Source of the DNA: Nemertoderma westbladi
Lineage: Eukaryota; Animalia; Xenacoelomorpha
Length of the DNA stretch: 64,000 nt
Direction: 5' to 3'
Assembly: GCA_032718475.1 (NCBI GenBank)
Contig: JAUCBJ010000938.1
Location: 44,368 to 108,367, forward strand
How positions within the stretch are numbered: the stretch's first letter is position 1; each line of letters opens with the position of its first letter. Shown here one piece after another: positions 38,356-62,984 of this stretch. The notes beneath the pieces were generated by a model, which was not told the DNA's origin, searched no databases, and saw nothing but the letters and a program-made list of their open reading frames with translations. Made by a program: the position numbers and the translations under genes.

Positions 38356-40311
38356 TTATTGGACCGACTTGTATTTACAAGCGAACATGACCCAAACGGC
38401 GATAGCCGATTCGGCGTAACTGAAGATCCTGACACGAACCGCGAGTCTGACACTGTCTCCACGGCAACTAACGATCTCCTTGGCAACGGGCGACTTCATC
38501 GCGGTCGCGAAGGCCCTCCTGGCGTTCCGGTGTAGCAGCTGCAACGGGAACCCCTTGAAGGTGTGGCCGTCTGGAACAACGTTCCTCACCGCGTCCTGGA
38601 AGTCCTGGTTACCGGTAGTGACCCCGGTGGATCGCTCGCTCTCGTACGCGGCCAACGCCTGCGTCATAACGAAGGAGAGGTCCTCGTCCCAGCGCGTCGT
38701 GAGCCGCTCGTCGCCGCGGTAATCGCTGACCAACCGACGCAACTCGGTCTCCATGGTGACGGCGGAGGCGACTCCGTCCAGCAACGGGGGACACAGACTG
38801 GGTCTGTTGCGCCAGTGGAGCACGGCACCGCAGACACTCGCTATAGCCGACTCGCTCATCGCTTTCCATTTGGCCGCGTCTGTGAGATCGAATGAAGTCA
38901 ACTCGACCGAGTCGCTAGGCTGGCAGTTCGCGTAGAACTCCGAGTGGTTGAAGAGACACCCGATCGTCCGATAGGGGTAGACAGCGCCATCTAGAGGGCC
39001 GTCTACGTCGGTAGATCGGTAGTTGTGGAGGTAGCGGGACCCTGTGAGACTCTCCCAGAAACAGACTCTCCCTTCCGCCGTGGGGCCCAGAGTTACCACC
39101 CAACTGTGGGCCTGCCCCTTAGCCTTGGTTCCTACGGCAACGTAAGCCTTCAGCCCGAAGCCAATGAGCAGCGAGCAGAGGAGGGTCACGTGATTCTCCA
39201 CGTCTCCCTTATTGGCTGCGAGGAAGGCGTGGCACGAGGCCCAAACCTCGGAGGCGCCGCCGCCAAGCCCGGCTGCCGCCGCTTCGTAGCCAATCAGAGA
39301 GATGAAACGCGCTGATTGGCTGGGAGAATCGAGAACCCCCCGGGTTGCCCCGGCTACGTACGCGCATACCATCCTATTGGTCGCCGTCTCGTCGCACGCG
39401 AATAGTTTAACCAATCGCGAGGCGTGGGATGGCCGCACCTCCAGGTATTCCTTCCACCACTGTTTCGCGTACATTAGGAAGGATCGTTCCCTCTCTGATC
39501 GTCGGGAACGTTCCATCTCCAACTGCGCCGTGACCACGTCCGCGGCGAGGACCTTACCAAGTCGCGGTACCATCTCTATAGTAACGTCGATCAACCCGAC
39601 TGGCACCTTGGCCTCCACACCGATTCCCATGAGCTCCAATGTGCGGCTAACCCTGCCGCTAGGGGCGCACAGTAAGTCGCGCCACTCCAGATAGTGGCTG
39701 GCCACCAGAGCGGCGTCTCCGCTCGCCTCCGTTCTCACTACGACCAGATGGAGTGGGTCGAATAGACTCAGTAGGCCAGTGGCGTCGAGCATGATGTCAC
39801 CGGTGTGCCGGTCTCGAGAGGCGTCCAATAGGAAGGATTCGCTGAACTCGGGTTCGCAGGCGCAGGGGACCCCACGCGACCGGAAACGCTGACCACGGAA
39901 GTCGATGTGAACGGTGAATGTCGAGGAACGATCGCGGTTGGACTCGGATAAGTGTTCCACGAACGCCCTCCCAGATAAAACCTGAAGGAATAAATAACGT
40001 CTATTGGAATCAATTGCGCCTTTCTTACCGGAGACAACTTCATCCCGGTTGATAAAACCTGGAGATTGTTTGGGATCGAGGGAGGATTGGTTGACCGGTT
40101 GGCCCGCTGACAGACTTAACTGACTCACTAAGTTGTCTACCACGCCTTTACGGTGTAACTCGGCGAGTAAGTCAGCCTCGGTCACATCGCCATCCGTCGC
40201 CCGGAGACGGTCTTCTAGAATTTCACGAATTTCGCTCTGAATGTCTGATCTGTTCATCTGGTTTCGAATGAGCTGTTTCAGTTCGGAAACTTTCCCAGAT
40301 GGAAGAACCAT
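38356..40311 (-). CDS. CEP76: Centrosomal protein of 76 kDa (C2 domain plus transglutaminase-like domain), single exon, 651 aa from the ATG at 40311
   Basis: The N-terminus ELKQLIRNQM..IREIL, FLMYAKQWWKEYLEVRPSH..RLVKLFA, LLCSLLIGFGL..VGTKAKG..HSWV, YPYRTIGCLFNH and the C-terminus VWVMFACKYKSV match CEP76 as I recall it. The ORF-track start at 40317 is a TTG; the first ATG is 40311-40309. Stop TAA at 38358-38356. Confidence 0.95.
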   Translation of the reverse strand: MVLPSGKVSELKQLIRNQMNRSDIQSEIREILEDRLRATDGDVTEADLLAELHRKGVVDNLVSQLSLSAGQPVNQSSLDPKQSPGFINRDEVVSGKKGAIDSNRRYLFLQVLSGRAFVEHLSESNRDRSSTFTVHIDFRGQRFRSRGVPCACEPEFSESFLLDASRDRHTGDIMLDATGLLSLFDPLHLVVVRTEASGDAALVASHYLEWRDLLCAPSGRVSRTLELMGIGVEAKVPVGLIDVTIEMVPRLGKVLAADVVTAQLEMERSRRSERERSFLMYAKQWWKEYLEVRPSHASRLVKLFACDETATNRMVCAYVAGATRGVLDSPSQSARFISLIGYEAAAAGLGGGASEVWASCHAFLAANKGDVENHVTLLCSLLIGFGLKAYVAVGTKAKGQAHSWVVTLGPTAEGRVCFWESLTGSRYLHNYRSTDVDGPLDGAVYPYRTIGCLFNHSEFYANCQPSDSVELTSFDLTDAAKWKAMSESAIASVCGAVLHWRNRPSLCPPLLDGVASAVTMETELRRLVSDYRGDERLTTRWDEDLSFVMTQALAAYESERSTGVTTGNQDFQDAVRNVVPDGHTFKGFPLQLLHRNARRAFATAMKSPVAKEIVSCRGDSVRLAVRVRIFSYAESAIAVWVMFACKYKSVQ

Positions 40312-40624
40312 TTTCAATACCGACTGTGACTACCTGACGTACAGGCTACAGCCACACTCTCACTCTACAAGTTGTATGTAGGTCTAATACCTGAATACTG
40401 TAATATGTATGTACAGTAAACCGTATGTAAGTATAGGCCTCTGTGGTATGTTCGTTCACGAGCAGTGTGAAATGTCAAGGCCTACTTGGTTGTACTCGTG
40501 TTCTAAAAATAAGTACATCTTGGTTGAACTACAGTTGTATGTTTTAAGAGTCACCATGGAAACTGTTATTAGTTGCTATGCTACTTATTTGAAGGGTTTG
40601 TATTGGACAATGAAAGTGTCTTTG

Positions 40625-42200: not shown

Positions 42201-43439
42201 CACCTGAAAAAAAAGTACAGTAATTGATATAAATCAATAAGACTAAAGTTACCAATCAGTAGTAAATTTGAATCTAAACGGTATAAATGTAAGAAAGTGA
42301 TACCCAGTAAACAAAGAACGAACACATAGTAAAATTAGTTGCTACAGTCTCGGGGTAACGCTGAAATTTAATTAAAATTATTACAATTGCAATAAAACTA
42401 AATCATTATCATTATCAGTCATGCCGCAATATACCGCAACTCTAGTCCTCTCTACGGGTTGCCCTCTTCTTAATGACGCTCAACAGAGTAAGAGATGTAA
42501 CGAAATAACAATTTTAGATTTTACATATTATTTATTTATTTATTTCTAATTTTTATATTTCATCAGTCAGTTGCTCCGTATATTTTATCAGTCAGTTTCA
42601 TTTGTTCCGCATATTTTATCAGTCAGAGTTATTCCACATATTGCAACATCGACATCGACGAATATTCCTTATATGTTGTGCTATATTTGAAAATATTCAT
42701 ATGTATGAATAAATACGTATACGTCGTTCAATTTCATAAAACTAAATCACTTATAGAGTTGAAAAACACTATATAGTAGACAACTCAATATTTTTCGATT
42801 ATGACGAAGTTGAGGATTTTGGATTTACAATAAATATCATTGTAACAATTATTAATAAAGTCGCAATGAGCTATCTCGTAGACGGTCAGTGATCCAACTT
42901 TCAGTCCAGAGATGAGATCCACTTCGCTGTATTGGTACGTGAGTTGGAAGATAACATTTTTATTCTTCTTTAATTGTTTCACAATTTTGAATACAGTACT
43001 GTAGTTTGAGTTTTGCCCACTCGGAATGTTTGGTTGGTTGGTCAGAATTTATATTTTCGCTTACAAATTTATTTGACATGCGTTTGAAAAGTGCCTTCAT
43101 CACATCCACACGGCACACGGTCCTTCCACACATATAATGATGACAAATCACCATAAATAATGCGGTGCGCCATGATAGTTCTTTATTATATATAATAAAT
43201 ATACTGTATAGTCAGTATTATAGGCATAACTTTGTGCATGTCTATTTTTCTTCATAAAGCCAATCACCCAGTAGTAGATCATTTTTTTTTTATTTTTATT
43301 TATTTATTTCTGAACAATTTACTACATTTCTACATACAATGTAGAATGTAGACGGTGGTTGGACGGGTAGGCCCATTACACCAGCCACCGTTAGCACTCA
43401 ACAATTGTAGCTGCACTAAGAAACGCATTACAAAAACAA

Positions 43440-44639
43440 TGTAAAAGCTTTTGCGGGATATAACTGGCCCTTTTGCTTCGCAATCCAGTTTCCCTTAATG
43501 CGCTCAAATACTCTAAAGAAAAACTCCCTAACTCAAAGGATGAAAGCTACCGGCTGATTGGCTGATTTGCCTAGCGACGGCCTCTTTGTTGGGTTCGATC
43601 AACCAACCAGAGCAAGGTCAACCAAGCAGAGCGATTCAGCCTTATGTTGGCTAAATCAATGTAATTGGCTGCAAAGGCTAGGGTGGTTTGGCATTTTAGA
43701 CGATTTGGAACCTGTGGAATATGGAACTCTGCCAATGAGAGCTTTTCCTTTCTGTGTTGAAATCTACCTGCAGCAGCTCACAGGGTTCAGTGTGTTGGTT
43801 TTCCTGATGCCATGAACATCGGCCATGGAATTATTCTGAATTATTCCAACATTAGAACGTCTTTAATTATAAGATCACATAACTGTTACCGGTACATGAC
43901 CAGCACTGGACAGCGTGAGGACCGGTACGGTACCTGCTGCTGTATTGCACATTATTTACTGCTATTTGCTGTTTGTTATTAAATGTATCATTCGTTTGCA
44001 TATTGTTATTTGGAGAATAACTATAAACGATCAGAAACCCCGATCTTCTTGATACACTAAGGTTAGAGAGACCGGCTACATATAGCAATTGCGGCTTATA
44101 TTATCGTGGTTTGTAGTGTGTAGTGAATTGAATGCTATTTTATAGGCCCTACAAATGCCGGTTGCTATTCTCTTTATATATGATTAAAATCAGTGACTAT
44201 CGGCAATTCAGTGTGCAGCGGTGTGCAATAGTCTGTATGTGCTTGTCCGCGTAACAAAGCATCTCCTAAAGAATGCGCCTTATGTGTAACTTATAATCCA
44301 TTCGTTGTGTTTAGTGTAAGCCATAGCTCTGTTTATATAGATAGAGCGCCACGTCCTAAAGGAACTGCTAATATTTCCCGAAAGTGAATAATATTTGTCA
44401 GAGATTATATATTAACGATCAATCGAATAGTACGGTAGGCCTGCACCGCAATCAAATTAAAGCATCCGAATCCAGTCTCCCGGGTATATCCAGCGGGTGA
44501 ATGGTCGCGCATAGACTGGCTTCGGCTAATGTTGGATTTATTTGTGTCAAATACTTGTCATAGGCTAAAGTCGATTTATAACCTAGAAGACATATAGATT
44601 TGGCGGGTTAAACTGCCAAAGGTCTTAAAAGCGCGAACA
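43440..44639 (+). repeat. 5' LTR (1200 bp)
   Basis: TGTAAAAGC...GCGCGAACA. No difference from the 3' copy seen by eye; the incidental 85-aa and 73-aa ORFs are identical in both copies at offset 10443. Confidence 0.96.
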
Positions 44640-44650
44640 GTAACAGTTAT
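44640..44650 (+). promoter_or_regulatory. Non-tRNA primer-binding site candidate GTAACAGTTAT, complementary to LTR 43879-43889 (ATAACTGTTAC)
   Basis: No TGG (tRNA CCA complement) follows the LTR. The 11-mer is an exact reverse complement of a site within the LTR. The function is inferred. Confidence 0.6.
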
Positions 44651-44922
44651 AGCTTCTTGATTGCGGCGTAAGCAATCAAGTTGATAGTACCGGTCGACCG
44701 GTAACCAGTAGGCCTGACTGCCTGATCATCCGGACCGGTACTTACTTACAGTACAGGTACAGCAGTATTATTTCGATTGTGATATATTGTATATTGTAGG
44801 CTGCCAGGGGAATAGGGATTGATCACCCCTCATTCTTTTGTATAGTTTACTTATTTCTGTCAGTTTTATTTACTAGTAGGCTAATATTGAGCAGAAGGCG
44901 TGTAACCCTGCTCAGATTGTAC

Positions 44923-45495
44923 AGATAATTTGTAGGCTGGACTGTTGTTCTGACTGTTGTTGGGTCTGAACGGATTGCAGTGCATGTAGAGTGTATGTCC
45001 GATAAAGTACGGTTAGGAAGTAGGGGCAGCCAGAGCTGTAAGGTCAATCCCCACCTAAAGAATAAGTCGTACTACCGTGTTAGAACGCATACTAACTAAC
45101 CATTTCGGAGTCTGCATGTCCTGTAGTTTATTTAGGCTTAATAGTAGTCTGCCAGCGTTTGGTCTGTACTTTGTTTGTGTAGTCTGTACGGGTAGCGTAT
45201 AATTTTATTTAGATAATTTGTAGGCTGGATAGTTGTCTGACTGTTGTTGGGTTTGAGGAAATTTCGGTGTGTGTAGAGCATCTGTCCGATAAAGTGTTGG
45301 GAACGTAGGGGCTTCAAGTGCTGTGAGGTAAACCCCCTGTGAAGGAATAAGTCGTACTACTAGGTTAGAACGCATACTAACTAATCATTTCGGAGTCTGC
45401 ATATACCGTAGTTTGTTTAGGCTTGATAGTAGTCTGTCAGTATTTGGTCTGCATTTTGTTTGAGTAGTTTGTACGCGTAGCGTAATATTTATTAT
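44923..45495 (+). other. Tandem 288-bp duplication; each copy can fold into a ~235-nt G-U-rich long hairpin
   Basis: Copies start at 44923 and 45211. Nested stems were checked by hand (44952-44970/45131-45149; 45239-45257/45416-45434; 45265-45277/45396-45408). Confidence 0.8.
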
Positions 45496-46441
45496 TCAGA
45501 GTTTATGCGATTATTCGCAACATTCATATCCCCAAGTTTATTCCTACAGTAATTGTGTTTGTTATACATACCGTTATAGTTAAACTAACCCCGGTACTAC
45601 ATCAGGGCTGCTCGGCGTAGGTAAAGACTGGAGATTTTGTGCTTTGGTCACTCCGGCAGATACCGTGGTTCTTTTAGCTGTTCAAGTATTTTTAACTACT
45701 GATTATTTGTTGTACAAGTACTTGTACCTAATTTAGGGTTTAGTGTACAGTGCTTTCCGAAAGCAATTAGTGTGTAGGCAGTATATTTGTGTTGTAAAGT
45801 GGTTAATAGGCACGTTGGTTCTGGTAGACCGCGGTAATTAATCTCTAGGTAGGAACACTCCGTGATACATAACGTAGTACCTATAGCGATACGGTTATAG
45901 GTCGTCAGGCGGTGGTATTTTCCTATCTGGACAACGCAGTATATTTACTACTACTTATTATTTTCAAATACCGTAGTAACCTGTCCGTCGTAATAACCAG
46001 ATATTCTAACCCTTTGTTAGGCTGGTTTGTAGATTCCCTGTAAAATTACCCTAAAAATTCGTATTTGTGTATTTGTAATTTTTGTGTTTATTTAGAGATT
46101 GTAATCTCACCCAGATTGTACGTAATTTGTAGTAATAAGTAACTTAGGTAAATTAGAATTATTTGTTTTAGTGTCCAATAATTAGCACTTCACTGAGAGC
46201 GCACAGCTTTTGTGTAGTGATTAATTCCCAGAAATAATAACATCTATTTCAATATTGTAACAAAACCCCTCATACGGGTACATATAAATCCACTAAATCT
46301 ATTAATAAAATAGTAGGCCTGTTATACAACACTTAGGTCTTAATATCAGTTGGACTGCTGCTCAAATAACGGTAATAAAGTAAGTAAAGTAACCAAGTAA
46401 CCCCTAACATTCAGAAATTCAATTATTTTTAAAATAATTGA

Positions 46442-46716
46442 CATACCGGTATTTACAATAGGCTTATTATATTTATTTCTATAAATTTGAGCTGAAATCA
46501 TACCGGTACTCTGTAATTAATTCTAGTCCATAATTATACTTATATATACTATCAGTGTAAGCTGTATACCGGTATTCACGATAGGCCTATTATATATTTA
46601 TATATATTTGTGCTAAAATTATATACCGGTACTCTGTGACAAACCTAGTTTACAATACTTATATATACTATAAGTGTATACCGGTATTCTAATATATTGT
46701 AATTAATTACCGGTAC
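46442..46716. repeat. Diverged ~123-bp tandem duplication carrying six TACCGGTA palindromes just upstream of ORF1
   Basis: TACCGGTA at 46444, 46501, 46567, 46624, 46679 and 46708. Confidence 0.8.
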
Positions 46717-46794
46717 TAGGCTAACAGTGATACTGAATTACTAGACTTGCTTTGACTGTAATATAGCAGTAGGCATTCAACTGTACAATCAAAC

Positions 46795-47931
46795 ATGTCT
46801 GACACAAAACGGGCACTGTCGGATAGTTCGGATCCCCTTCTCATCCTTCCTGTAGCCGTACTCAAAAGGGTATTGATTGCGGTGGAGGAGCACCAGATGG
46901 ATTGGGCGAAAAGTGAGCGATCGACCAAGGATAGTTATGCGGGATACACGAAGGAGGAACTGAAGTCTATTGTCGAGACGCAATGGAATTTCCCCGGACC
47001 CGGACTCCCGTTTAACTTATCGAAAGCTGGCTGGGAGGACTTATACAGGATGGGAGTGGTATGGAACACTAGGGATTCGGCTAGGTTGAAGGAGTCGGCA
47101 GCAGGATATGTACGGAGATTCTTCAGCTCTCTGTTGCGATTGGAGGAGCAGATGTTTCAGCGGCCTCACGGACCTCGGGAGCAGGAAGAGCTGTTTTATC
47201 AAGTTCGCGAACAAGTTCTGTGGATCAGACTAATTCTTTTAGCCTATAAGAAAGTCTCAAGGATAAGCCAAGATACGTCGTTGCGGGTCGCCGTAAAGAC
47301 TTGGTTCTGGCGAGTGAGTCTTAAAGTCCAAGAAACGACTCAATGGAAAGCTCTGCTAACCGAGCACATGACCCAAGGAGAATCAACAGACGCTGTCTTT
47401 TCTCAAGTGGAAGGCGAAGCGACGGCAGAGAAACCTCAGAAGAAGGACGCAAGAGTTACGTCATCTGATGAAGGCGATACCACTGATCCTGAAGGCGGAG
47501 GAAATAAATCTCGTTCAAGCAGGCGTAGGAGAATGCCACACTGTCCGAAGTTACCTATTTTGCCTCCTGCGGTGAGACTAGCTAGCACAGACTTAGGTAG
47601 TACAGAACCCACAGACCAAATTATTACAGTAGAAAGACTCCCTACTGTAGTAGATGAGCCTGAAATAATTAGGCCTGTTCTTGAAATCACCCCTTCGGTG
47701 ATAGAGACACCTGTGCTCCCAGAACCTGCCTATAAATTCCCTTTGTACAGTACTAAACTACCTGTGCCCAGTAGGACTGTTCCCGAGTCCGAACCCGTCC
47801 TGGACGCCGAGCGAGATATCAAGAATTTATCGCCCGTCGTCTCTCGCTCGCCCGCTACTACGTTGGCGACTCCCGCTTCGGCGGTTGAGTGGGTAGCTGA
47901 CGGGAGATGGGTCTCCTGCTCGAGCAGCTGA
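46795..47931 (+). CDS. Retroelement ORF1, 378 aa, unknown function (helical-looking N-terminal ~195 aa, basic RSSRRRR patch, Pro/Ser/Thr/Glu-rich tail); possibly the N-terminal part of Gag
   Basis: Uninterrupted ORF inside the LTR element, overlapping ORF2 by 25 nt. No family recognised. Confidence 0.65.
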   Translation: MSDTKRALSDSSDPLLILPVAVLKRVLIAVEEHQMDWAKSERSTKDSYAGYTKEELKSIVETQWNFPGPGLPFNLSKAGWEDLYRMGVVWNTRDSARLKESAAGYVRRFFSSLLRLEEQMFQRPHGPREQEELFYQVREQVLWIRLILLAYKKVSRISQDTSLRVAVKTWFWRVSLKVQETTQWKALLTEHMTQGESTDAVFSQVEGEATAEKPQKKDARVTSSDEGDTTDPEGGGNKSRSSRRRRMPHCPKLPILPPAVRLASTDLGSTEPTDQIITVERLPTVVDEPEIIRPVLEITPSVIETPVLPEPAYKFPLYSTKLPVPSRTVPESEPVLDAERDIKNLSPVVSRSPATTLATPASAVEWVADGRWVSCSSS

Positions 47932-50642
47932 GGGAACACTGTTTGTGCTCCTCTCAGCAGGTCCGGGAAATGGAAGAGACTGTTCAGCAGCTCAAGGGAA
48001 CAGTAAGGGAAAGTAGGTTAGAGTTGCAAAAGGTGCAGCAAAGTATCGCGTTAGAACGCGATAAATTAGTCAATTTACAAAAGGGTATACCACCACCCCC
48101 TGTAACAATGTGTCAACCCGTTAGGTCTGAAGTATCTCATGCGCAAGGTGTGGAGCCTACACGCATCTATACTGCTAGTGAAGTAGAAACTCCTATAGTA
48201 AACCCTATTCAGGGTGATTATAAACCTGTTGATAATAATATTCCATATAGACCTGATCATAATCCGAGAAACTTATATACCGATAATTCTATATTCAATA
48301 ATACGATGGCTCAAGAAAGTTTTACGCGTCAAATGGCTAGAACCGAAGCCCGTCAAGCGGTAAAGGTTGGAGAGATCGTCAAGTTCAATGGAGATGAGAT
48401 GAAATGGTTACCTTTTAATGAATATTACAAAGATAACATACAGAATTCTGTGCTATCTAACGGAGAGAAACTCAGATACCTCATCGAATGCTTGGAAGGA
48501 CCTCCCAAGTTAATGGCGTTAAAGTTTATTGGACATCCAGATGGATTAAGACAAGTTTGGGATACAATAAACATCAGGTATGGTAATAGGACTAACATAG
48601 CTAGGTATTTGTATGCGAAATTAATGGCGCCCCGAAAGTTTCTTAGCAGCGGGATTATAGAGTTTTCCGATGAGATTCAGGAGATCTGTAGACAGCTAGA
48701 TTGGTTAGGTAAGTCTCATGAATACCAGAACTCTATGGTTGTAGGAGCCTTAGCATCTACTTTACCAAAGGGTGGAGTAGGTACACGCTGGGACAAGAAA
48801 GTGTTATATGTGATGGAACAACAACAACGAGACCCTACCATGGCTGATCTCATGTCATTCTTGGATGGCGAAGTGAAATTACAGCTCATAAAGCAGTCCA
48901 GAGAGAAAACACCGGAAAACAAGGTAAGTGAGAAACCCGTCTCTAGGAGAAAGGTAACACCAGTGTGTTATACAGACGACGGCGAAAGCCAGACTGCTCA
49001 AGGAGAGGATAGCGGGAAAGATACTGAAAGATCTTACTATGACAACAAAGCGACTAAGGACGTAAGTAAATTCAAGTCTCGAACCAATGACAGGAGAGAA
49101 CAGGTAAGAAAAACTCCTCCTACGTCTCCTAAGAGAATTCATGTAAGAAATCCCGAGGAAAGAACGAACGTGCACCACACAGCACATGTTAAAGTAAGTA
49201 ACATCAAGCCCAAATGTGTGCTGTGCGACGGGCCCCACCGTTTAAATGCGTGTGATGAATTCCTGAGGAAATCACTAAAGGATAGACGTGAAGTCATGTG
49301 GGATAAGCGGTTGTGTTATAATTGCCTCAGACGAGGACACCAACGGCGAACCTGTTACTCCGACGCAAGGTGTGCAAAGTGCGGTGCGAAACATAATATC
49401 TTGTTGCACACTGAATTCGAGCGAAATAGTCCGAGTCAGGTGAGTGATTTCGAACTACATGTCCAATTCAGTGATGTGAACGACACTGATCAATCTGAGA
49501 TGGAAGGATTCTATACGGACGAGTTCTCCGACGAAAACGAATCCTGTTACATGATAAATACCGCAGTGTATCGAGCACTCACTTATGAAAAAGATACAGA
49601 AAGTGACCTCACTCTAACTACTTCTGATCGACAACCATCTTGGAAAGCGCCAACTTCCAATGTAGGGATTAGAGAATTTCCTGTGGTACAGATAAGGGTC
49701 CACGGACCAAAAAGGAGTTATGTAGTGAACGCCCTCCTTGACTCCGGTAGTACAGGAACATTCATCGACAACGAGCTAGCCGAAGACATATTTGCTGGAC
49801 AACCCAAGTTCCGAACTAAGCTAAACATGTCAGGAATTATGCCGGTTTGGAAATCTACAGTAACAGCGGATTATTATGTAGGCGCGTTGTCCACCCCCCA
49901 GGATGAACTAGGAGAACACAGCATAAGGTCAGTAAAAATGGTAGCGATAAAGAACTTCGCGACCAGCCAAGTGGAACCTTATAACTGGGATGAGGACGAT
50001 TTCACCCAGCAGCTTGAAATACCTAGATTCAACACCGATTACCCTGGAGTCCAAATACTCATCGGTCAAAATGCGCATGAAGCGCTCGAGACATTGGAGA
50101 AACGGCCTGCTCAACCGCAACCACTACAAGTCTATGCGGGAAGAACTAGAGTAGGTTGGTACTTTACTGGCCCTTCTCGTAGAACTCTTATAGAAAGATT
50201 ACCAAAAGAACAGGTATATCAATTAAGTGAACGGGAAGTGGAGAGCAGTGAAGTTGACGACCCAACTGAGGGAACACCATACTCCTCAGATAATGACGAC
50301 ATCAACTCCAATGTAGATCAATGGAGACATTGCCCCGAGACGATCAATCTAGCCGACATCGCCTCCAGAGGAGCAACTCCTCAAGAACTGACAGATACTC
50401 CAGACTGGTTAGGTGAACCCGACTTCCTAAGTAAAGAAGATGAATGGCCTCCCCATCTTAACCCGGCGAAGATTAGACAGGCCAAGGGAGCGGAGAAAGT
50501 AACACAACCACTCAATCGCCCAGCTGGTCGTTTATGTTTACTGGAAAGAGACCGAAAACTGTCCGGAAACTATGGAAGGCAAGATACTCTTCCCACGACC
50601 ACCTCCCTAATCCAACAAATATCTAGGGACTCCATAACGTAA
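47907..50642 (+). CDS. BEL/Pao Gag-protease polyprotein, 911 aa, with RT, most of RNase H and integrase missing
   Basis: Coiled coil. DUF1759-like Gag core (KFNGDEMKWLPF..LSNGEKLRYLIECLEG..RYGN). Pao triple Cys/His cluster CVLCDGPHRLNAC..CYNCLRRGHQRRTC..CAKCGAKHNILLH from 49215. Aspartic protease ALLDSGS (~49731) with ILIGQN and RTRVGW. RNase H tail WRHCPETINLADIASRG (~50322). Pol terminus-like RPAGRLCLL (~50517). No YxDD or DDE motif. Confidence 0.9.
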   Translation: MGLLLEQLREHCLCSSQQVREMEETVQQLKGTVRESRLELQKVQQSIALERDKLVNLQKGIPPPPVTMCQPVRSEVSHAQGVEPTRIYTASEVETPIVNPIQGDYKPVDNNIPYRPDHNPRNLYTDNSIFNNTMAQESFTRQMARTEARQAVKVGEIVKFNGDEMKWLPFNEYYKDNIQNSVLSNGEKLRYLIECLEGPPKLMALKFIGHPDGLRQVWDTINIRYGNRTNIARYLYAKLMAPRKFLSSGIIEFSDEIQEICRQLDWLGKSHEYQNSMVVGALASTLPKGGVGTRWDKKVLYVMEQQQRDPTMADLMSFLDGEVKLQLIKQSREKTPENKVSEKPVSRRKVTPVCYTDDGESQTAQGEDSGKDTERSYYDNKATKDVSKFKSRTNDRREQVRKTPPTSPKRIHVRNPEERTNVHHTAHVKVSNIKPKCVLCDGPHRLNACDEFLRKSLKDRREVMWDKRLCYNCLRRGHQRRTCYSDARCAKCGAKHNILLHTEFERNSPSQVSDFELHVQFSDVNDTDQSEMEGFYTDEFSDENESCYMINTAVYRALTYEKDTESDLTLTTSDRQPSWKAPTSNVGIREFPVVQIRVHGPKRSYVVNALLDSGSTGTFIDNELAEDIFAGQPKFRTKLNMSGIMPVWKSTVTADYYVGALSTPQDELGEHSIRSVKMVAIKNFATSQVEPYNWDEDDFTQQLEIPRFNTDYPGVQILIGQNAHEALETLEKRPAQPQPLQVYAGRTRVGWYFTGPSRRTLIERLPKEQVYQLSEREVESSEVDDPTEGTPYSSDNDDINSNVDQWRHCPETINLADIASRGATPQELTDTPDWLGEPDFLSKEDEWPPHLNPAKIRQAKGAEKVTQPLNRPAGRLCLLERDRKLSGNYGRQDTLPTTTSLIQQISRDSIT

Positions 50643-51159
50643 CAACATACGGAGTGGGTGTGTGACTACATTATTTTATATTTATTTTATTATTTTATAT
50701 TATGTATGTATTATTATGTAATTTTATTATAATCGTTTTCTTTAATTTTATTTAGTAGAATGTTATTTAGTGATTATTTAGTAGATTAGTGCAATATATT
50801 AGTGTTTATTACTTAATTACTTATATATTATATTTAGTGCGACGGCGAGAAATAATTCTTTTTCTCTTTCCTTACTGTCCGTATCATATTATAAATACGT
50901 GACTACAGTAAGATGAAATATCCGTACTTATTAAAGTACAATAAAGCCACTACTATATTTAAGTATTATTGGTAGGCAGAGTATTAGGAATGCAAAGTTC
51001 AGATCCTCGTGTCTCGGCTATACCAAGCTCTGGGTAGACCTTGGAAACGACTTGCCTCTTCACACTGACATTGCTTCGTGCGATATTGCTCTCATACCGT
51101 ATATTAAATAATACATATAGTAGCGTGATGTCCCTTTAACAGTAGCGTAAAACGCAAAA

Positions 51160-51490
51160 TAAATCTGTTAAACCCTTTGACCATCTGCAATTCTAGTCGA
51201 TTAAGATATCGCGGCACCCACCGATATACTTGAAAGACAAAATTCTAGAATTAGTGGTTAACGTCCCCAGACAAGTTCTGGAATAAACTGGTGCCCATCC
51301 TAAATATTAATTATTAATATTTACAAAATCTGTCAAATTTTAGATCCTTTAACATTCTAGTCGATTAAGATATCGTAGCACTTACCGATACTCTTAAAAA
51401 GACAAAATTCCTAGAATCAAGGATCCCAGTCCCCAGACACGTTCTGGAATAAAATTACGTCTATTTAACATTAAATAATAAAATTTACGG
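51160..51490. other. Tandem ~164-bp duplication with conserved nested stem-loops in the element's 3' non-coding region
   Basis: Both copies contain ATTCTAG/CTAGAAT, TTAAG/CTT(G/A)A, TATCG/CGATA and a CCAGA-loop-TCTGG hairpin. The outer stems differ but both pair. Confidence 0.75.
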
Positions 51491-52097
51491 GAATAAATTT
51501 AAATTCATATATTTCAATGAATTTAATAAATTGTCATTTTGTACAATTTATAACATTCCCAAAATTCCATTAATTAATAGATCATGGGAGCGGAGATTTA
51601 CTCTATTAAGTGTATTTGTGTGCGAGAATCTCCAATATATAGTCAATAGCCGATAAAATTCATAAAATCATATATAGAGAGGATATTGACAATTAAAGAA
51701 TTACTATTAAATAGCATCCCAGATCTGTATGCATGGGAATTACCCTAATTCTACCGCTAGCTTTCCATAATGTCACCATAGCAACAACCACGCTAGAATT
51801 AGAAGCGAGTTAACAGAACAATAAAAAGCTTGCTCATTGAATAGCATACGGAATAAATAGCACACCGCTAGTATCCAAGGATACATAATAACAACGTGAC
51901 ATTCTGGAAGGCACTTGACTAACGGACAAATGACCCGAATGTGTGATAGAATGTGTACCATTTGTGACAGTTACGTGGAATTTGTGCGTTTGTAGGTGAA
52001 TGTTACTACTAAGGTGTGTTTACAGTAGCGAGTCGCAATTGTGAAAGTAACCCTAACTCTCCAGTAAGAACCTGAAGTATATCTAAGCCTTTGGGAC

Positions 52098-52243
52098 GGA
52101 CGGTGGAGTGGCTCGTGCTGGTTGTTGTAGTCGTTGTGCAGCTACGACGTTGGCGATAGGCACATCGGCGAAAGTACACCAGCGCTGAGGATCTCGCACT
52201 GTCCGGGGGCAGAGAGGGGTAGGCAGCGACGCCCGCTCGCCTA
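52098..52243 (+). promoter_or_regulatory. GC-rich multibranch RNA structure candidate (IRES-like leader) before ORF3
   Basis: GGACGGTG/CACTGTCC, GTGCTGGT/ACCAGCGC, GTTGTAGT/GCTACGAC, CGAT/ATCG, then TAGGC-AGCG/CGCT-GCCTA. The function is inferred. Confidence 0.5.
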
Positions 52244-52285
52244 AATATAAACTCATTATAATATGGATAAACTTATATAGCAGAT

Positions 52286-53856
52286 ATGATTGAGTTGATA
52301 GATGATGATCTTGGTATCAGGGAGCAATATACTCTACCTTTACAAGCGTTTGTTGATAGCTTGATACGCGGCGACGCTGGTCCAACTACTACGGAGGACG
52401 ATGGTCGTTATATCTAACCGCCAATCTCCCGGGAGCAACTTGCGCGTGGGTTGGACTGTAGAAAATTTACCGCTCGCTATACGCATCGTAATGGTATGTA
52501 TATGGACTTCTTAACTACTGGTCATCCTATCGACCTACACGATACGAACGATATAGACACCAAAAGGGAAATGGTTTTATTTAAATATCATACCCAGCGG
52601 AAGCGGAACGATAAAATGAGACTCGAACACGAAAATTCTATTCGAAACCGACTCGAAAGTGAAGATGTTGAAGAGCCGGATAAACGCAGCGACTTCACCA
52701 AAATATCTGGAATTCTTGAGAGAAGCCTATCTTGATATTACCAGTCAACAGAACCTAGAGACTCGATATCCTCAAGGTATACATCATGACCGCATGGTAG
52801 AACTCAAACAGCTCTATTCCACTATGATGTATCTTACCGTCGATCGACCGCTACCTGTTGTACCGGATAGCTTCGAATGGATGGAGGAATATTGTAAGCT
52901 GGAGAAAGATCACTCGCGTTTCCCCTATAAGACGTGCGTCTTTGGTATTATTGAGATGAATGCCCTAGACCCAACCAACAAACGGAAAGATATAAACATC
53001 CGCGGAGACGTTGCGCTAAACACGGTTTTACTCGCTATACTTACGGGAGTTTCGAGCGAAACTTGTTCGATGTATCACCTACGCTCGCTCGGCTCAAACG
53101 ATCCTTAAATAAACCTATGATCAGAGTTCCGGAATACTCGATCAGACCTCCTCATTCCCTAGTGAGACCTCAAGCTCTTGATCTTAATAGTATGACGGAT
53201 CCTCCTGAACTGTATTCATTGTTTAAAGATCTAGTGTTACCCGAGCAATTAGTCGGTGGCACTCCGGTTTTGGGCTCCCTAAATATCCGCCCATCTTACC
53301 TGGCCGGATTGGGGCACGGACACCTGATATCGCCATTCAACCGTATAATCGTAATCGTCCCCGTTTAACACGATACAACCGTCATCAAGGTGGAGGAGAG
53401 CGTTGTACGAAACGAGTTAAACGCTATTCTACAAAGATCAGAAAAGAAACCTACGTTTGTTCAGATAAACTTAAATTATAACGGCAAGTCCAAGCGGTAA
53501 ACGGATTGGCTTTATCCCAGTTCGATTGGGAAATCCCGAATCTCTAAGACGATATTGAGCTTGGATGACCCTATTCTCGGCGAGAGTTTGGACGAACGTA
53601 TCCAACGATGAGCGGAGGAAAATCAGCTCGAGGAGAAGCATATCGAAACGGCGGATACCCCGACCATAATCCTACACCTTATGATGCAATCACATTGCAC
53701 CCAGGAGTTATGGCCCTCCTAGTAAAGTGGCTCCCCCCAAAGAGAAAAGGACTCTTGCTAGCTTTAAAAAACTGCGTAAACGCCGTCCACGCAAGACAGA
53801 CTAACTGTTTAGAGTATTTTTATATTTTAGAAACTGTGATTTTTTATATTTTATAG
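52286..53856 (+). pseudogene. Decayed extra ORF (ORF3) of unknown origin in the env position of the element
   Basis: ATG 52286 is in frame with track ORF 52451 across one TAA (52415). Overlapping ORFs 52659-53108 and 53063-53368 chain on by frameshifts, and coding-like sequence continues past stops to ~53720-53856. The end coordinate is uncertain. Confidence 0.6.
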
Positions 53857-53873
53857 AATTAAATCCCATTTTC

Positions 53874-53882
53874 TGGGAGCGG
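53874..53882 (+). promoter_or_regulatory. Polypurine tract candidate TGGGAGCGG
   Basis: Abuts the TGT of the 3' LTR. Confidence 0.65.
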
Positions 53883-55082
53883 TGTAAAAGCTTTTGCGGG
53901 ATATAACTGGCCCTTTTGCTTCGCAATCCAGTTTCCCTTAATGCGCTCAAATACTCTAAAGAAAAACTCCCTAACTCAAAGGATGAAAGCTACCGGCTGA
54001 TTGGCTGATTTGCCTAGCGACGGCCTCTTTGTTGGGTTCGATCAACCAACCAGAGCAAGGTCAACCAAGCAGAGCGATTCAGCCTTATGTTGGCTAAATC
54101 AATGTAATTGGCTGCAAAGGCTAGGGTGGTTTGGCATTTTAGACGATTTGGAACCTGTGGAATATGGAACTCTGCCAATGAGAGCTTTTCCTTTCTGTGT
54201 TGAAATCTACCTGCAGCAGCTCACAGGGTTCAGTGTGTTGGTTTTCCTGATGCCATGAACATCGGCCATGGAATTATTCTGAATTATTCCAACATTAGAA
54301 CGTCTTTAATTATAAGATCACATAACTGTTACCGGTACATGACCAGCACTGGACAGCGTGAGGACCGGTACGGTACCTGCTGCTGTATTGCACATTATTT
54401 ACTGCTATTTGCTGTTTGTTATTAAATGTATCATTCGTTTGCATATTGTTATTTGGAGAATAACTATAAACGATCAGAAACCCCGATCTTCTTGATACAC
54501 TAAGGTTAGAGAGACCGGCTACATATAGCAATTGCGGCTTATATTATCGTGGTTTGTAGTGTGTAGTGAATTGAATGCTATTTTATAGGCCCTACAAATG
54601 CCGGTTGCTATTCTCTTTATATATGATTAAAATCAGTGACTATCGGCAATTCAGTGTGCAGCGGTGTGCAATAGTCTGTATGTGCTTGTCCGCGTAACAA
54701 AGCATCTCCTAAAGAATGCGCCTTATGTGTAACTTATAATCCATTCGTTGTGTTTAGTGTAAGCCATAGCTCTGTTTATATAGATAGAGCGCCACGTCCT
54801 AAAGGAACTGCTAATATTTCCCGAAAGTGAATAATATTTGTCAGAGATTATATATTAACGATCAATCGAATAGTACGGTAGGCCTGCACCGCAATCAAAT
54901 TAAAGCATCCGAATCCAGTCTCCCGGGTATATCCAGCGGGTGAATGGTCGCGCATAGACTGGCTTCGGCTAATGTTGGATTTATTTGTGTCAAATACTTG
55001 TCATAGGCTAAAGTCGATTTATAACCTAGAAGACATATAGATTTGGCGGGTTAAACTGCCAAAGGTCTTAAAAGCGCGAACA
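53883..55082 (+). repeat. 3' LTR (1200 bp)
   Basis: Copy of 43440-44639, followed by the TSD AACAA. Confidence 0.96.
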
Positions 55083-55219
55083 AACAAATAACCGACAAAT
55101 CTACTGTACGATCGAGTATCATAGTAATCAAGCGTAAGAGATCATTTACAGTATTGCAGTATTGATTGCTGCATGCCTGACTTCCGAACTGAGTCACACT
55201 CAGCTCAGCTCACTTTAGT

Positions 55220-56743
55220 ATGCCTCACATGCGTAATTGGAATTTTTTACCCCACAGTTTACTATTGAAAATATTCTCATATCTACCGCCCCTGGAAGTT
55301 GCACGGATTCGCAGAGTTAGTATAACATGGGACGAGGTAAGTCGCGATAACTTACTTTGGAGGTTTCTTTTCAAAGGATTCTGGAAGGCGAATATTAACG
55401 TCCCGCCACACAGACACACCTACCAAACCAACTGGGAGGAAGAGTTCAAAACTCTATACTTAGATTCACCAACACAATTGAGCGAGACTCTAACCTCACA
55501 CACCGACGAAGTTTTACACGTTAGTTTTTCTAACAACGGTTTGTATTTCGCGACGTGTTCGAAAGATGCGACAGTCCGTTTATGGGACTCAACAAACTGC
55601 GAACAACGGCATTGCGCTAATCTAAACTCCCTTTTCTATTGGCAGTACACACAGTTTTCCCAGTTCAACACATCGGACTCATTGCTTCTTGTCTCCGGGG
55701 CTCATTTTGGGCCACACAGCATTTCGGGCGAGATAGCCGTGTTCGATGTTGAGGCTTTCGTTCTCCAGTCTCGAGTATTAAATAAACCCTACGACGTTTT
55801 CGGCTGTTGGCTATACGATGACACCGTACTCTCGGGGATTCTGTATCCCCGTTCGGGACTTACAAGTTGCTCAGGTCTGTGGCTCAACAAAGCCTATCAA
55901 TACACTGATAATGAAAGTCAACCAGTAGTTAAGTTATTGTATCGCTTCCTTAACTATGGCGCATCTACTGTTAGAATGATTAAAATTTGCGATTTACCTT
56001 CGAGAAATGAGTCGGAGAGAGAAATTCAAACTAACGATAATATTGAAAATATTGCAAAACGTACGAAACTTGATGGATCTACACAATCTAATGATAACAA
56101 CCCCAACCGGACTAAACTTTTAATATTTACCGCGGGTAATCGAACTTATATCCCTCATTTAATCGCGTTTAAACGCGTCGACGAGTCGCGGACAGCGATC
56201 GATCCGATTACCGACACGGCGGTCGAACCTTCCGACGACGACAGCGTGCCGCCCGAGTTCGACGAGGCGGATCGATTGATAGACCTGGAGGGCCACATCC
56301 TGGGGTTGGCCGTGAGTCCGGACTGTCGGTTCCTCTACTGCAACGTGCGGTCGTGGCCGCGCGGCACGCAGATATCCGACCCGCTGGTCCCGCCCCCCAT
56401 CGCCCGGGAGATCGAACTCCGATGCTTCGATCTCCTCGACTTCTCGCAACTCGACTCCGAGCTCCCGATCCACGGACACGTCGGGCACCGCGCCAACGAC
56501 GAGTGTTTCTTCATTCATCCGGACGTGTCGCACGATCTGGTTGCCAGCGGTTCCGAGGACCGGGTTGGCTACGTCTGGCACCGTCGGTATAAATGCGTCG
56601 TCTCTCAGTTGTCGCACCGCAGTGTGGTTAACTGCGTGGCTTTTAATCCCCGCGAACCAGGTATGTTGGTCTCTGTGAGCGACGATAACACCATAAAGGT
56701 TTGGCGATCCAGATCAAGTTTAGAAACTTGCGCGTCAAACTAA
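55220..56743 (+). CDS. FBXW5: F-box/WD repeat-containing protein 5, single exon, 507 aa
   Basis: F-box LPHSLLLKIFSYL..VSRDNLLW; HTDEVLHVSFS..FATCSKD; YTQFSQFN.SDSLLLVSG; NKPYDVFGCWL; LYCNVRSWP; ECFFI..VASGSED; VVNCVAFNP..SDDNTIKVWRS. These match FBXW5 as I recall it. Confidence 0.95.
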   Translation: MPHMRNWNFLPHSLLLKIFSYLPPLEVARIRRVSITWDEVSRDNLLWRFLFKGFWKANINVPPHRHTYQTNWEEEFKTLYLDSPTQLSETLTSHTDEVLHVSFSNNGLYFATCSKDATVRLWDSTNCEQRHCANLNSLFYWQYTQFSQFNTSDSLLLVSGAHFGPHSISGEIAVFDVEAFVLQSRVLNKPYDVFGCWLYDDTVLSGILYPRSGLTSCSGLWLNKAYQYTDNESQPVVKLLYRFLNYGASTVRMIKICDLPSRNESEREIQTNDNIENIAKRTKLDGSTQSNDNNPNRTKLLIFTAGNRTYIPHLIAFKRVDESRTAIDPITDTAVEPSDDDSVPPEFDEADRLIDLEGHILGLAVSPDCRFLYCNVRSWPRGTQISDPLVPPPIAREIELRCFDLLDFSQLDSELPIHGHVGHRANDECFFIHPDVSHDLVASGSEDRVGYVWHRRYKCVVSQLSHRSVVNCVAFNPREPGMLVSVSDDNTIKVWRSRSSLETCASN

Positions 56744-61733: not shown

Positions 61734-62382
61734 TTATGTAAGTTCTACCTTTTTTGAGAATGTCTTCCAAGCTTCTTCCATATCGCCCTCATGTAATTCT
61801 ATACTATCAATGATTGGACGAAGCAAATCACGTTCTAAGAAGACTTCTAAGAAGAAACAAGTTGTCCTATCGCGTTCCGATATGTTAGTCGCCGTTGGTA
61901 AACATTTAGAATGTATTGCCTCATTGGCTTCCCTTAATTCACTAACATCTTTCGCCATTCTTTCGAGTCCGTAATGGTGTATTTTATTCCACAGAGAGTT
62001 ATTGAAGTGTTGGTAGAGCATCCAATCTCCTAAATTAAGTTGTCGTATTTTCTCTTGGTTTTGGTTGTTTTCTTTTTTATCCTCTTTCTGGTGGACATTT
62101 TTGATTTTAAAAACGATATCGTCAATATCCCAACACAGTAACTCTTTCATAAGAATTAGTGACTCTTCGTAATGTTCCAAGAGTATTATATGATCAAATT
62201 CATTGTCTATTTCTCTAATTATATTCTGAATTTCCGAAACATTGTTTTCATTTTCTAATATATATCCGAAATCATAAAGCATTGGATTCACAAATCTTCT
62301 ATTGTTGAATAATATTTCTTCAGGATGTTTCAGATAGGCATCCAGACGGGATCCGTTTGTTTCATTTGTGTTTATTTTCAAA
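61734..62382 (-). CDS. Galactose-3-O-sulfotransferase (GAL3ST) family protein, probable last coding exon
   Basis: NPMLYDFG..IDNEFDHIILLEHYEESLILMKELLCWDIDD..N..DWMLYQHFNNSLWNKI..YGLERMAKDVSELR is the GAL3ST C-terminal half. Candidate acceptor ..TTTACTCCTCCTAG ends at 62383. Upstream PAPS-binding exons were not found in the window. Confidence 0.8.
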
Positions 62383-62984
62383 CTAGGAGGAGTAAATGTC
62401 ATAAAAATTAACATTCTTCAATCTATTAGATTTTCGAAAATATCTGTTCGATTATTAAATTCAATTATCTTTTTCATAAATTAAGAGTATTCATATTTAA
62501 TAAGACATCGAAATTAATTGTTGCCCCTCAAAACCTATTTTTGCTAAAACTAGTGAAAATTAAAAATAAATTATAATTAAAGTCCGTTTTTTTAAAATTA
62601 GGCATCCAGCTTATATATTTCCATAACTTCGCGAGTTTTGATCGTAGAGAAAGGGAGCTGAGTTTGGCCTCATTCTGTTCGGAATGTAACGATCTTATTG
62701 AAATCCACTTCACATTTATAATTTTATTTTTATGTTTTTCTCTTGCTCAGACTTCTCATTTTCTTGCATCTTCTTAAAAATTAATTTTAACATTCGTGAT
62801 TTTGCACTCTACCTGTATAGCAATAATTTCTAGTTTAAAGAAATATATAGGTTTCGATGTATTTATTTCTTAGTATTGCAATAATTACGTCTCAAATGCA
62901 TCCAAATCGTTGTTTTTCAGGAATAATTATTGGAATCGTTTAGATGTAAAATGTGAAAAAAATACATCAGATACTCATGTTGGG

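Follow-up and report, generated by a model that had tools for sequence, protein, structure and literature searches.

The window analysed here, a stretch of 64,000 nucleotides, contains a BEL/Pao retroelement set among host genes. A satellite array (38 bp, about 988 copies, 91% match) occupies window positions 1-37614. The three flanking host genes are single long ORFs (intron-poor), and the host, as judged from this sequence, is an intron-poor animal far from well-sampled groups. The genes and the parts of the element are as follows.

38356-40329, minus strand: CEP76 gene, full-length and without introns, matching urchin, annelid, fish and sea anemone alike at 49-53%
43435-43439 (left) and 55083-55087 (right), no strand: target-site duplication of 5 bp, AACAA, read on both flanks
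43440-44639, plus strand: 5' LTR of 1200 bp with TG..CA ends, identical to the 3' LTR
43978-43983, plus strand: candidate poly(A) signal ATTAAA with a GT-rich tract behind it; the working copy would be the one in the 3' LTR
44656-44680, plus strand: 9-bp leader hairpin (arms 44656-44664 and 44672-44680; z -3.0, with 1 of 200 shuffles as good)
44688-44703, no strand: perfect 16-nt palindrome, a candidate dimerisation site
44923-45500, plus strand: two tandem repeats of ~290 bp, 82% alike, within the 2.1-kb leader
46795-47931, plus strand: ORF1, 378 aa from the first ATG, upstream of gag and overlapping ORF2 in another frame
47901-50642, plus strand: ORF2, 913 aa, with DUF1759 gag, zinc knuckles and aspartic protease, then directly a post-RNase H motif
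50643-53874, plus strand: 3' region of AT-rich non-coding DNA, then short broken reading frames
53875-53882, plus strand: short G-rich tract at the PPT position, like the G-rich tracts of relatives
53883-55082, plus strand: 3' LTR, from self-comparison of the window
55193-56743, plus strand: F-box/WD40 protein gene, beginning about 110 bp past the element
61734-62417, minus strand: galactose-3-O-sulfotransferase gene, a single long ORF

The element spans 43440-55082, and its two 1200-bp LTRs are 100% identical. Together with the TG and CA ends and the flanking AACAA duplication, this identity fixes the LTR edge at 44639 independently of any pairing, in agreement with the first-pass annotation, which had ended the 5' LTR there with no TGG after it. 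Because the LTRs are identical and AACAA lies on both flanks, the insertion is young. The BEL/Pao identity proposed at that stage was also borne out: the DUF1759 gag domain in ORF2 is recognized by Pfam with an E value of 3e-13, and BEL/Pao polyproteins can be aligned with the element over the zinc knuckles, protease and post-RNase H motif. The ATTAAA reported at 43978 is present, and two more occur in the 5' LTR, at 44183 and 44456.

The ORF2 region has no RT, RNase H core or integrase, and a tblastn search with 67 long BEL/Pao proteins found no remnants of RT or integrase in 37001-64000, an absence that the first-pass annotation did not mention. The element is a recently inserted, non-autonomous BEL/Pao copy, and because it is internally deleted it needs the enzymes of a partner. 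Searches of protein libraries found neither a close autonomous partner nor a close protein relative; the best matches are at 21-40%, and identity is 25-39% over the matched stretches in the best 150 of 10458 library matches to the element's protein. ORF1 has no significant Pfam match, and a search for a classic slippery site found none. The broken frames of the 3' region likewise have no significant Pfam match; those at 52400-53850, before the 3' LTR, are possibly a decayed extra gene.

The PBS and its complement in the LTR

The features that bear on priming are these.

43845-43890, plus strand: block conserved among diverged host copies, putatively core promoter plus primer
43867-43872, plus strand: TATA-like word within the conserved block (TATAA at 43868), the basis of a rival start site
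43875-43877, plus strand: YCA motif, a putative initiator, whose A at 43877 is the predicted start, 13 nt before the primer 3' end
43879-43889, plus strand: predicted self-primer, 11 nt complementary to the PBS; a second copy lies at 54322-54332 in the 3' LTR
44640-44650, plus strand: PBS position of 11 nt, directly behind the 5' LTR, without TGG

According to the ICTV, BEL/Pao elements (Belpaoviridae) have an 18-nt PBS for tRNA-Arg or tRNA-Gly, and their replication is poorly understood (PMC8742986). The first bases past the LTR of the window element lack the TGG of such a tRNA-type site. As the first-pass annotation had noticed, 44640-44650 is the exact reverse complement of 43879-43889, at offset 0 and with the match stopping at exactly 11 nt on both sides. 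The chance of this had been put at 3e-4, a figure that holds for uniform composition but becomes 5e-4 to 1e-3 under Markov models of order 0-3. Within the element, 9 of 9213 internal offsets, the PBS included, give an LTR complement of at least 11 nt, and, with offsets 0-6 and spliced joints permitted, 11 is attained by 4 of 1000 shuffles of the 40 nt behind the LTR. The window holds no tRNA gene, and an Rfam scan of it returned a single sub-threshold match, at a distant place. Eight viral contigs that match an 18-nt PBS pattern were set aside as chance, their agreement being limited to those 18-19 bases; protein scans of viral contigs gave nothing usable, and a 28-nt pattern of PBS and hairpin had no match in metagenomes.

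In Tf1, according to the accessible part of PMC7175516, the transcript's initial 11 bases pair with the PBS and RNase H cuts between bases 11 and 12. We consider it likely, with a probability of roughly 0.8, that the window element primes minus-strand DNA synthesis with its own RNA in a Tf1-like manner. Each step of the route is a prediction, including the start site, the annealing, the cleavage, the enzyme and the choice between pairing within or between RNAs. The transcript would start at 43877 and pair with the PBS through bases 3-13, either inside a single RNA molecule or across an RNA dimer. The RNase H of the autonomous partner's RT would cut after 43889, and the released fragment would serve as primer at the LTR edge, from which the minus strand would be made across U5 and R.

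The predicted start follows from the YCA motif. YCA resembles an initiator with A as +1, and an A placed 13 nt before the primer end predicts a start at 43877 and a 13-nt primer of which 11 bases are paired. The motif, which is shared with other families (see below), suggests that transcription begins two bases before the paired segment rather than at 43879 +/-1, as had been proposed; the LTR site on which that proposal centred is itself supported. The TATA-like motif noted near 43868 exists, and the word beginning at 43867 is too close to 43877 for the textbook spacing of a TATA box. It could put the start near 43895, behind the 11-mer, which counts against self-priming.

The 11-bp helix alone has an energy of -12.5 kcal/mol, yet the minimum-energy fold does not contain it. 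Imposing it carries a penalty of 1.4-3.6 kcal/mol in RNAs ending at 44700-44760 and 16.8 in an RNA ending at 44900, and its pair probability is 0-0.12, depending on the RNA end chosen, for long-range folds that are unreliable as a class. The distance from primer to PBS is 750 nt in the window element, as against 23-201 nt in its relatives.

The 9-bp hairpin that the first-pass annotation had noted behind the PBS is present, but it is not common to distant relatives and therefore probably lies outside the core mechanism. ACCGGT, the core of the 16-nt palindrome, recurs at the primer 3' end (43887-43894) and several times in the leader.

Copies in the host and other BEL/Pao families

Six public runs from four studies contain part of the element, in all cases as contigs, and none of the six is recorded as RNA. 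In a comparison over 43300-44920 at 80% similarity, the diverged contigs formed an island of matches at 43844-43888 and ceased to match at 43888-43890. The left edge of the conserved block is gradual (about 43825-43860) and its right edge is sharp, at 43888-43890, so that the LTR site singled out in the first-pass annotation coincides with the 3' edge of the block. We followed the depth across this edge in four public DNA runs, X1-X4, which represent three samples and three studies (X1 and X2 are from the same sample). Summed contig depth in bins 43885-43889, 43890-43894, 43895-43899 and 43900-43904, respectively, was as follows.

X1: 17379, 6232, 1367, 1033
X2: 26050, 7623, 1652, 1036
X3: 9696, 1849, 683, 521
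X4: 380, 108, 25, 0

Between the first and last of these bins, just behind the block, summed contig depth drops 17- to 25-fold (380/0 in X4); this quantity is not copy number, and one of the runs may be the window's own source. Eleven of the 32 listed pieces (145 in all) in the region 43815-43950 terminate at 43888-43890. The six letter differences listed all lie within 43894-43917, in a list that leaves out differences near contig ends. Pieces carry up to 6 other letters inside the island; the block is conserved, not invariant.

In all four runs T is the first letter of the loose ends behind 43888, and some copies therefore have T at 43889. Pairing in such copies would persist through a G-U wobble or through a change at 44640, where one X4 contig fails to match, a hint of a paired change in the PBS. 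Block conservation is thus seen in the window's own family, whereas a paired change of PBS and LTR site is not seen there. At the hairpin, 44677 is A in most of the depth of the four runs, and an X3 loose end has T at the partner position 44659; this pair probably changes on both sides in other copies in a compensatory manner, each of the two changes being seen separately. Summed depth over 44015-44920, the 3' half of the LTR and the leader, is far above that of the 5' half of the LTR in four of four runs, an excess that reflects a large family sharing U5 and leader, with diverged U3 parts. One X1 contig (43330-43439) stops precisely where the LTR begins, which is what would be expected if filled and empty versions of the site both exist.

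Relatives were found by aligning ten marine-type polyproteins that score well against ORF2, and the best 80 of 503 confirmed stretches yielded 63 metagenome loci. Twenty-one of these were testable; the other 42 were left unscored as near-duplicates (L012, L028, L042 and L065) or for want of an LTR start and leader that could be recovered. The search accepted contiguous matches as well as GTRAG..AG joints, at offsets 0-6, a limit chosen after L019 and L041 had been seen. An own-LTR complement of 10-16 nt was found in 19 of the 21 testable loci, mostly across a GT-AG junction, which answers the call of the first-pass annotation for a comparison with related BEL/Pao families. Because the loci are related, the 19 positive loci are not independent events.

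Six loci have an LTR end fixed by two copies. None of the six has TGG behind the LTR, and all six have an own-LTR complement of 10-13 nt, contiguous in two and spliced in four; four of the six pass at offsets 0-3. Shuffles match the values of these loci 0-4 times in 1000, and pairings across elements give 8 or less in 40 of 42 cases, with one 9 and one 10. A blind scan of 15 more regions of unknown LTR end, each CA being taken in turn as a candidate end, yielded 11-16 nt in 11 of them (null, 0-2 of 60 shuffles). The remaining 4 gave no complement at the original settings; with looser settings, for which no null was run, 2 of them give an 11-nt joint of 4+7, and L031 and L043, both of them short and reconstructed from contig ends, still give none. 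Several CA..TGG candidates are present in the blind-scanned regions.

All 18 primers compared (17 loci and the window) differ in sequence, and their LTRs barely align; the complement has been kept through sequence change across other BEL/Pao families, in pairs that are Watson-Crick by design of the search. What the primers share is a signature read off the same data. YCA, with its A exactly 13 nt upstream of the primer 3' end, occurs in 12 of 18 elements (background 0.025), WAY at the primer end in 18 of 18 (background 0.082) and SG directly after it in 13 of 18 (background 0.072). With the window left out, the counts are 11/17, 17/17 and 12/17, respectively. The window's site has all three, and the element's LTR contains the full signature at 2 of 1183 places, one of them being the PBS-complementary site. 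No TATA box upstream of the primers is shared among the compared relatives. In 10 of the 18 elements the LTR end is separated from the perfect pairing by 3 additional bases, often TCA; the SG behind the primer may pair with these across one mismatch, which would place the true primer end 3 nt further on.

GT-AG-spanning complements are found in L011, L023, L025, L027, L033, L036, L037 and L040, and further in L041, L048, L049, L051, L054, L062, L064 and L068. They are most often split 4+7 nt, with donors that are mostly GTAAGT or GTGAGT, and the first exon would be about 6-9 nt if YCA marks the start. The unspliced L053 is sister to the spliced L023 in the protein tree (support 0.999), showing that the primer intron was gained or lost among near relatives. 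The best spliced joint for the window element itself, 43885-44061, has a weak donor and gives 10 nt at offset 1; it was rejected as worse than the unspliced 11 nt at offset 0. In a tree of 525 gag-protease columns, without RT, the clade formed by the tested loci excludes the window element (support 0.96), which has a long branch and is at most 28% identical to those loci. The members of that clade (L010-L072) are therefore analogues, and their evidence applies by analogy.

Alternative primers and known systems

The self-priming proposed in the first-pass annotation is supported from two sides, by the block edge at the LTR site and by own-LTR complements with different letters in other families. 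The pairing could be real and selected and still serve a primer that does not come from the capped 5' end, if the 3' LTR copy (54322-54332) pairs and is cut free, or if the helix is a packaging or dimerisation switch and priming occurs otherwise. Such an arrangement would suit the presence of the 11-mer in both LTRs, a predicted fold that does not favour the 5' helix and the hairpin and 16-nt palindrome behind the PBS; the TATA-like word could also put the start behind the 11-mer, so that only the 3' copy is transcribed. We nevertheless judge it improbable, given that the pairing stops precisely at the LTR edge, from which DNA synthesis has to proceed, that the 13-nt YCA distance is fixed in 12 of 18 elements, as a start site would give, and that in most relatives the complement arises only after splicing.

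Slightly less credible still is a primer supplied by a host RNA, such as a tRNA half or other small RNA, with the LTR match due to chance and the block a core promoter whose edge is coincidental. The ICTV calls the family tRNA-primed (PMC8742986), half-tRNA primers without TGG are known in copia lineages (according to the accessible part of PMC6317226), and a 1e-3 match is bound to appear among the many elements of a large scan. A host primer requires three coincidences, however: the match (about 1e-3), a conservation edge within 1 nt of its end and the signature at that place (2/1183). It would also have to accommodate 18 PBS sequences that all differ and that each have a match in the LTR of the same element. 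It is very unlikely that the complement is a relic of an ancestor that was self-priming or had placed a copy of its primer site in the LTR, unused by present copies: the copy is defective and on a long branch, but identical LTRs and an intact target-site duplication indicate recent mobility, and the copies have diverged in what immediately follows the 11-mer but not in the 11-mer itself.

Priming by the element's own RNA, our preferred reading, could extend well beyond this copy. It seems to us an even bet that a large share of BEL/Pao, deep lineages included, normally self-primes; the capped primer would be ~13 nt long, with a YCA start, ~11 nt paired and a WAY/SG cut, and would be made directly, as in the window element, or through a spliced first exon of 6-9 nt, as in most relatives. 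If so, the tRNA-primed description covers only part of BEL/Pao. The unspliced form in the window element, beside the spliced forms in relatives, would mean that the primer can be built in two ways.

The way in which reverse transcription is begun counts among the traits that define LTR elements. In the accessible parts of PMC6317226 and PMC4600332, the Tf1/sushi group is described as self-priming, and for Tcn1 and the TAR copia lineage the same is predicted. A BEL/Pao self-primer, if true, extends the Tf1 mechanism to a third superfamily, accounts for BEL/Pao elements without a findable PBS and offers annotation pipelines a new end marker. It also lends itself to a sharp test, since it predicts a single start base (43877) and a single cut (after 43889). 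Self-priming in BEL/Pao was not found in the full-text literature, as far as its accessible parts go; an earlier description may exist in supplements, Repbase, GyDB or subscription papers. The accessible parts of two BEL/Pao papers (PMC3118150 and PMC554778) do not mention the PBS, and that of PMC8220671 touches on it in general terms only.

The closest parallels are Tf1 and Tf2 of Schizosaccharomyces pombe, Tj1, and the Tf1/sushi and Tcn1 groups of Ty3/gypsy, which, like the window element, have no tRNA PBS and an 11-base complement between LTR and PBS (accessible text of PMC7175516 and PMC4600332). The window element differs in belonging to another superfamily (its proteins are of BEL/Pao type, not of the Ty3/gypsy chromovirus type), in the two unpaired bases predicted before the paired 11, in a loop of 750 nt and in having relatives that build the complement by splicing; its self-priming is, moreover, a prediction from sequence alone. 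For the TAR lineage of plant Ty1/copia (Houba and Osr-1), self-priming has likewise been predicted from LTR-PBS complementarity (PMC6317226, in its accessible part), there in copia elements of plants and here in a BEL/Pao element of an animal. Because the TAR lineage lies outside the Tf1/sushi group, independent origins of self-priming would have a precedent, as far as that source goes. With Belpaoviridae as described by the ICTV the element shares LTRs of up to 1.2 kb, DUF1759 gag, zinc knuckles, protease, post-RNase H motif and G-rich tract; it departs from them in the missing TGG, the internal deletion and an identity of at most about 39% to library proteins.

Fungal GalEa copia elements, with their Conserved Hairpin Site, and bivalve TRIMs resemble the window element in that they lack a tRNA PBS and carry a 9-bp inverted repeat close behind the LTR (PMC5445492 and PMC6934838, in their accessible parts). 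Their authors, in those same parts, report finding no LTR complement, whereas the window element has one, and its hairpin lies behind the PBS.
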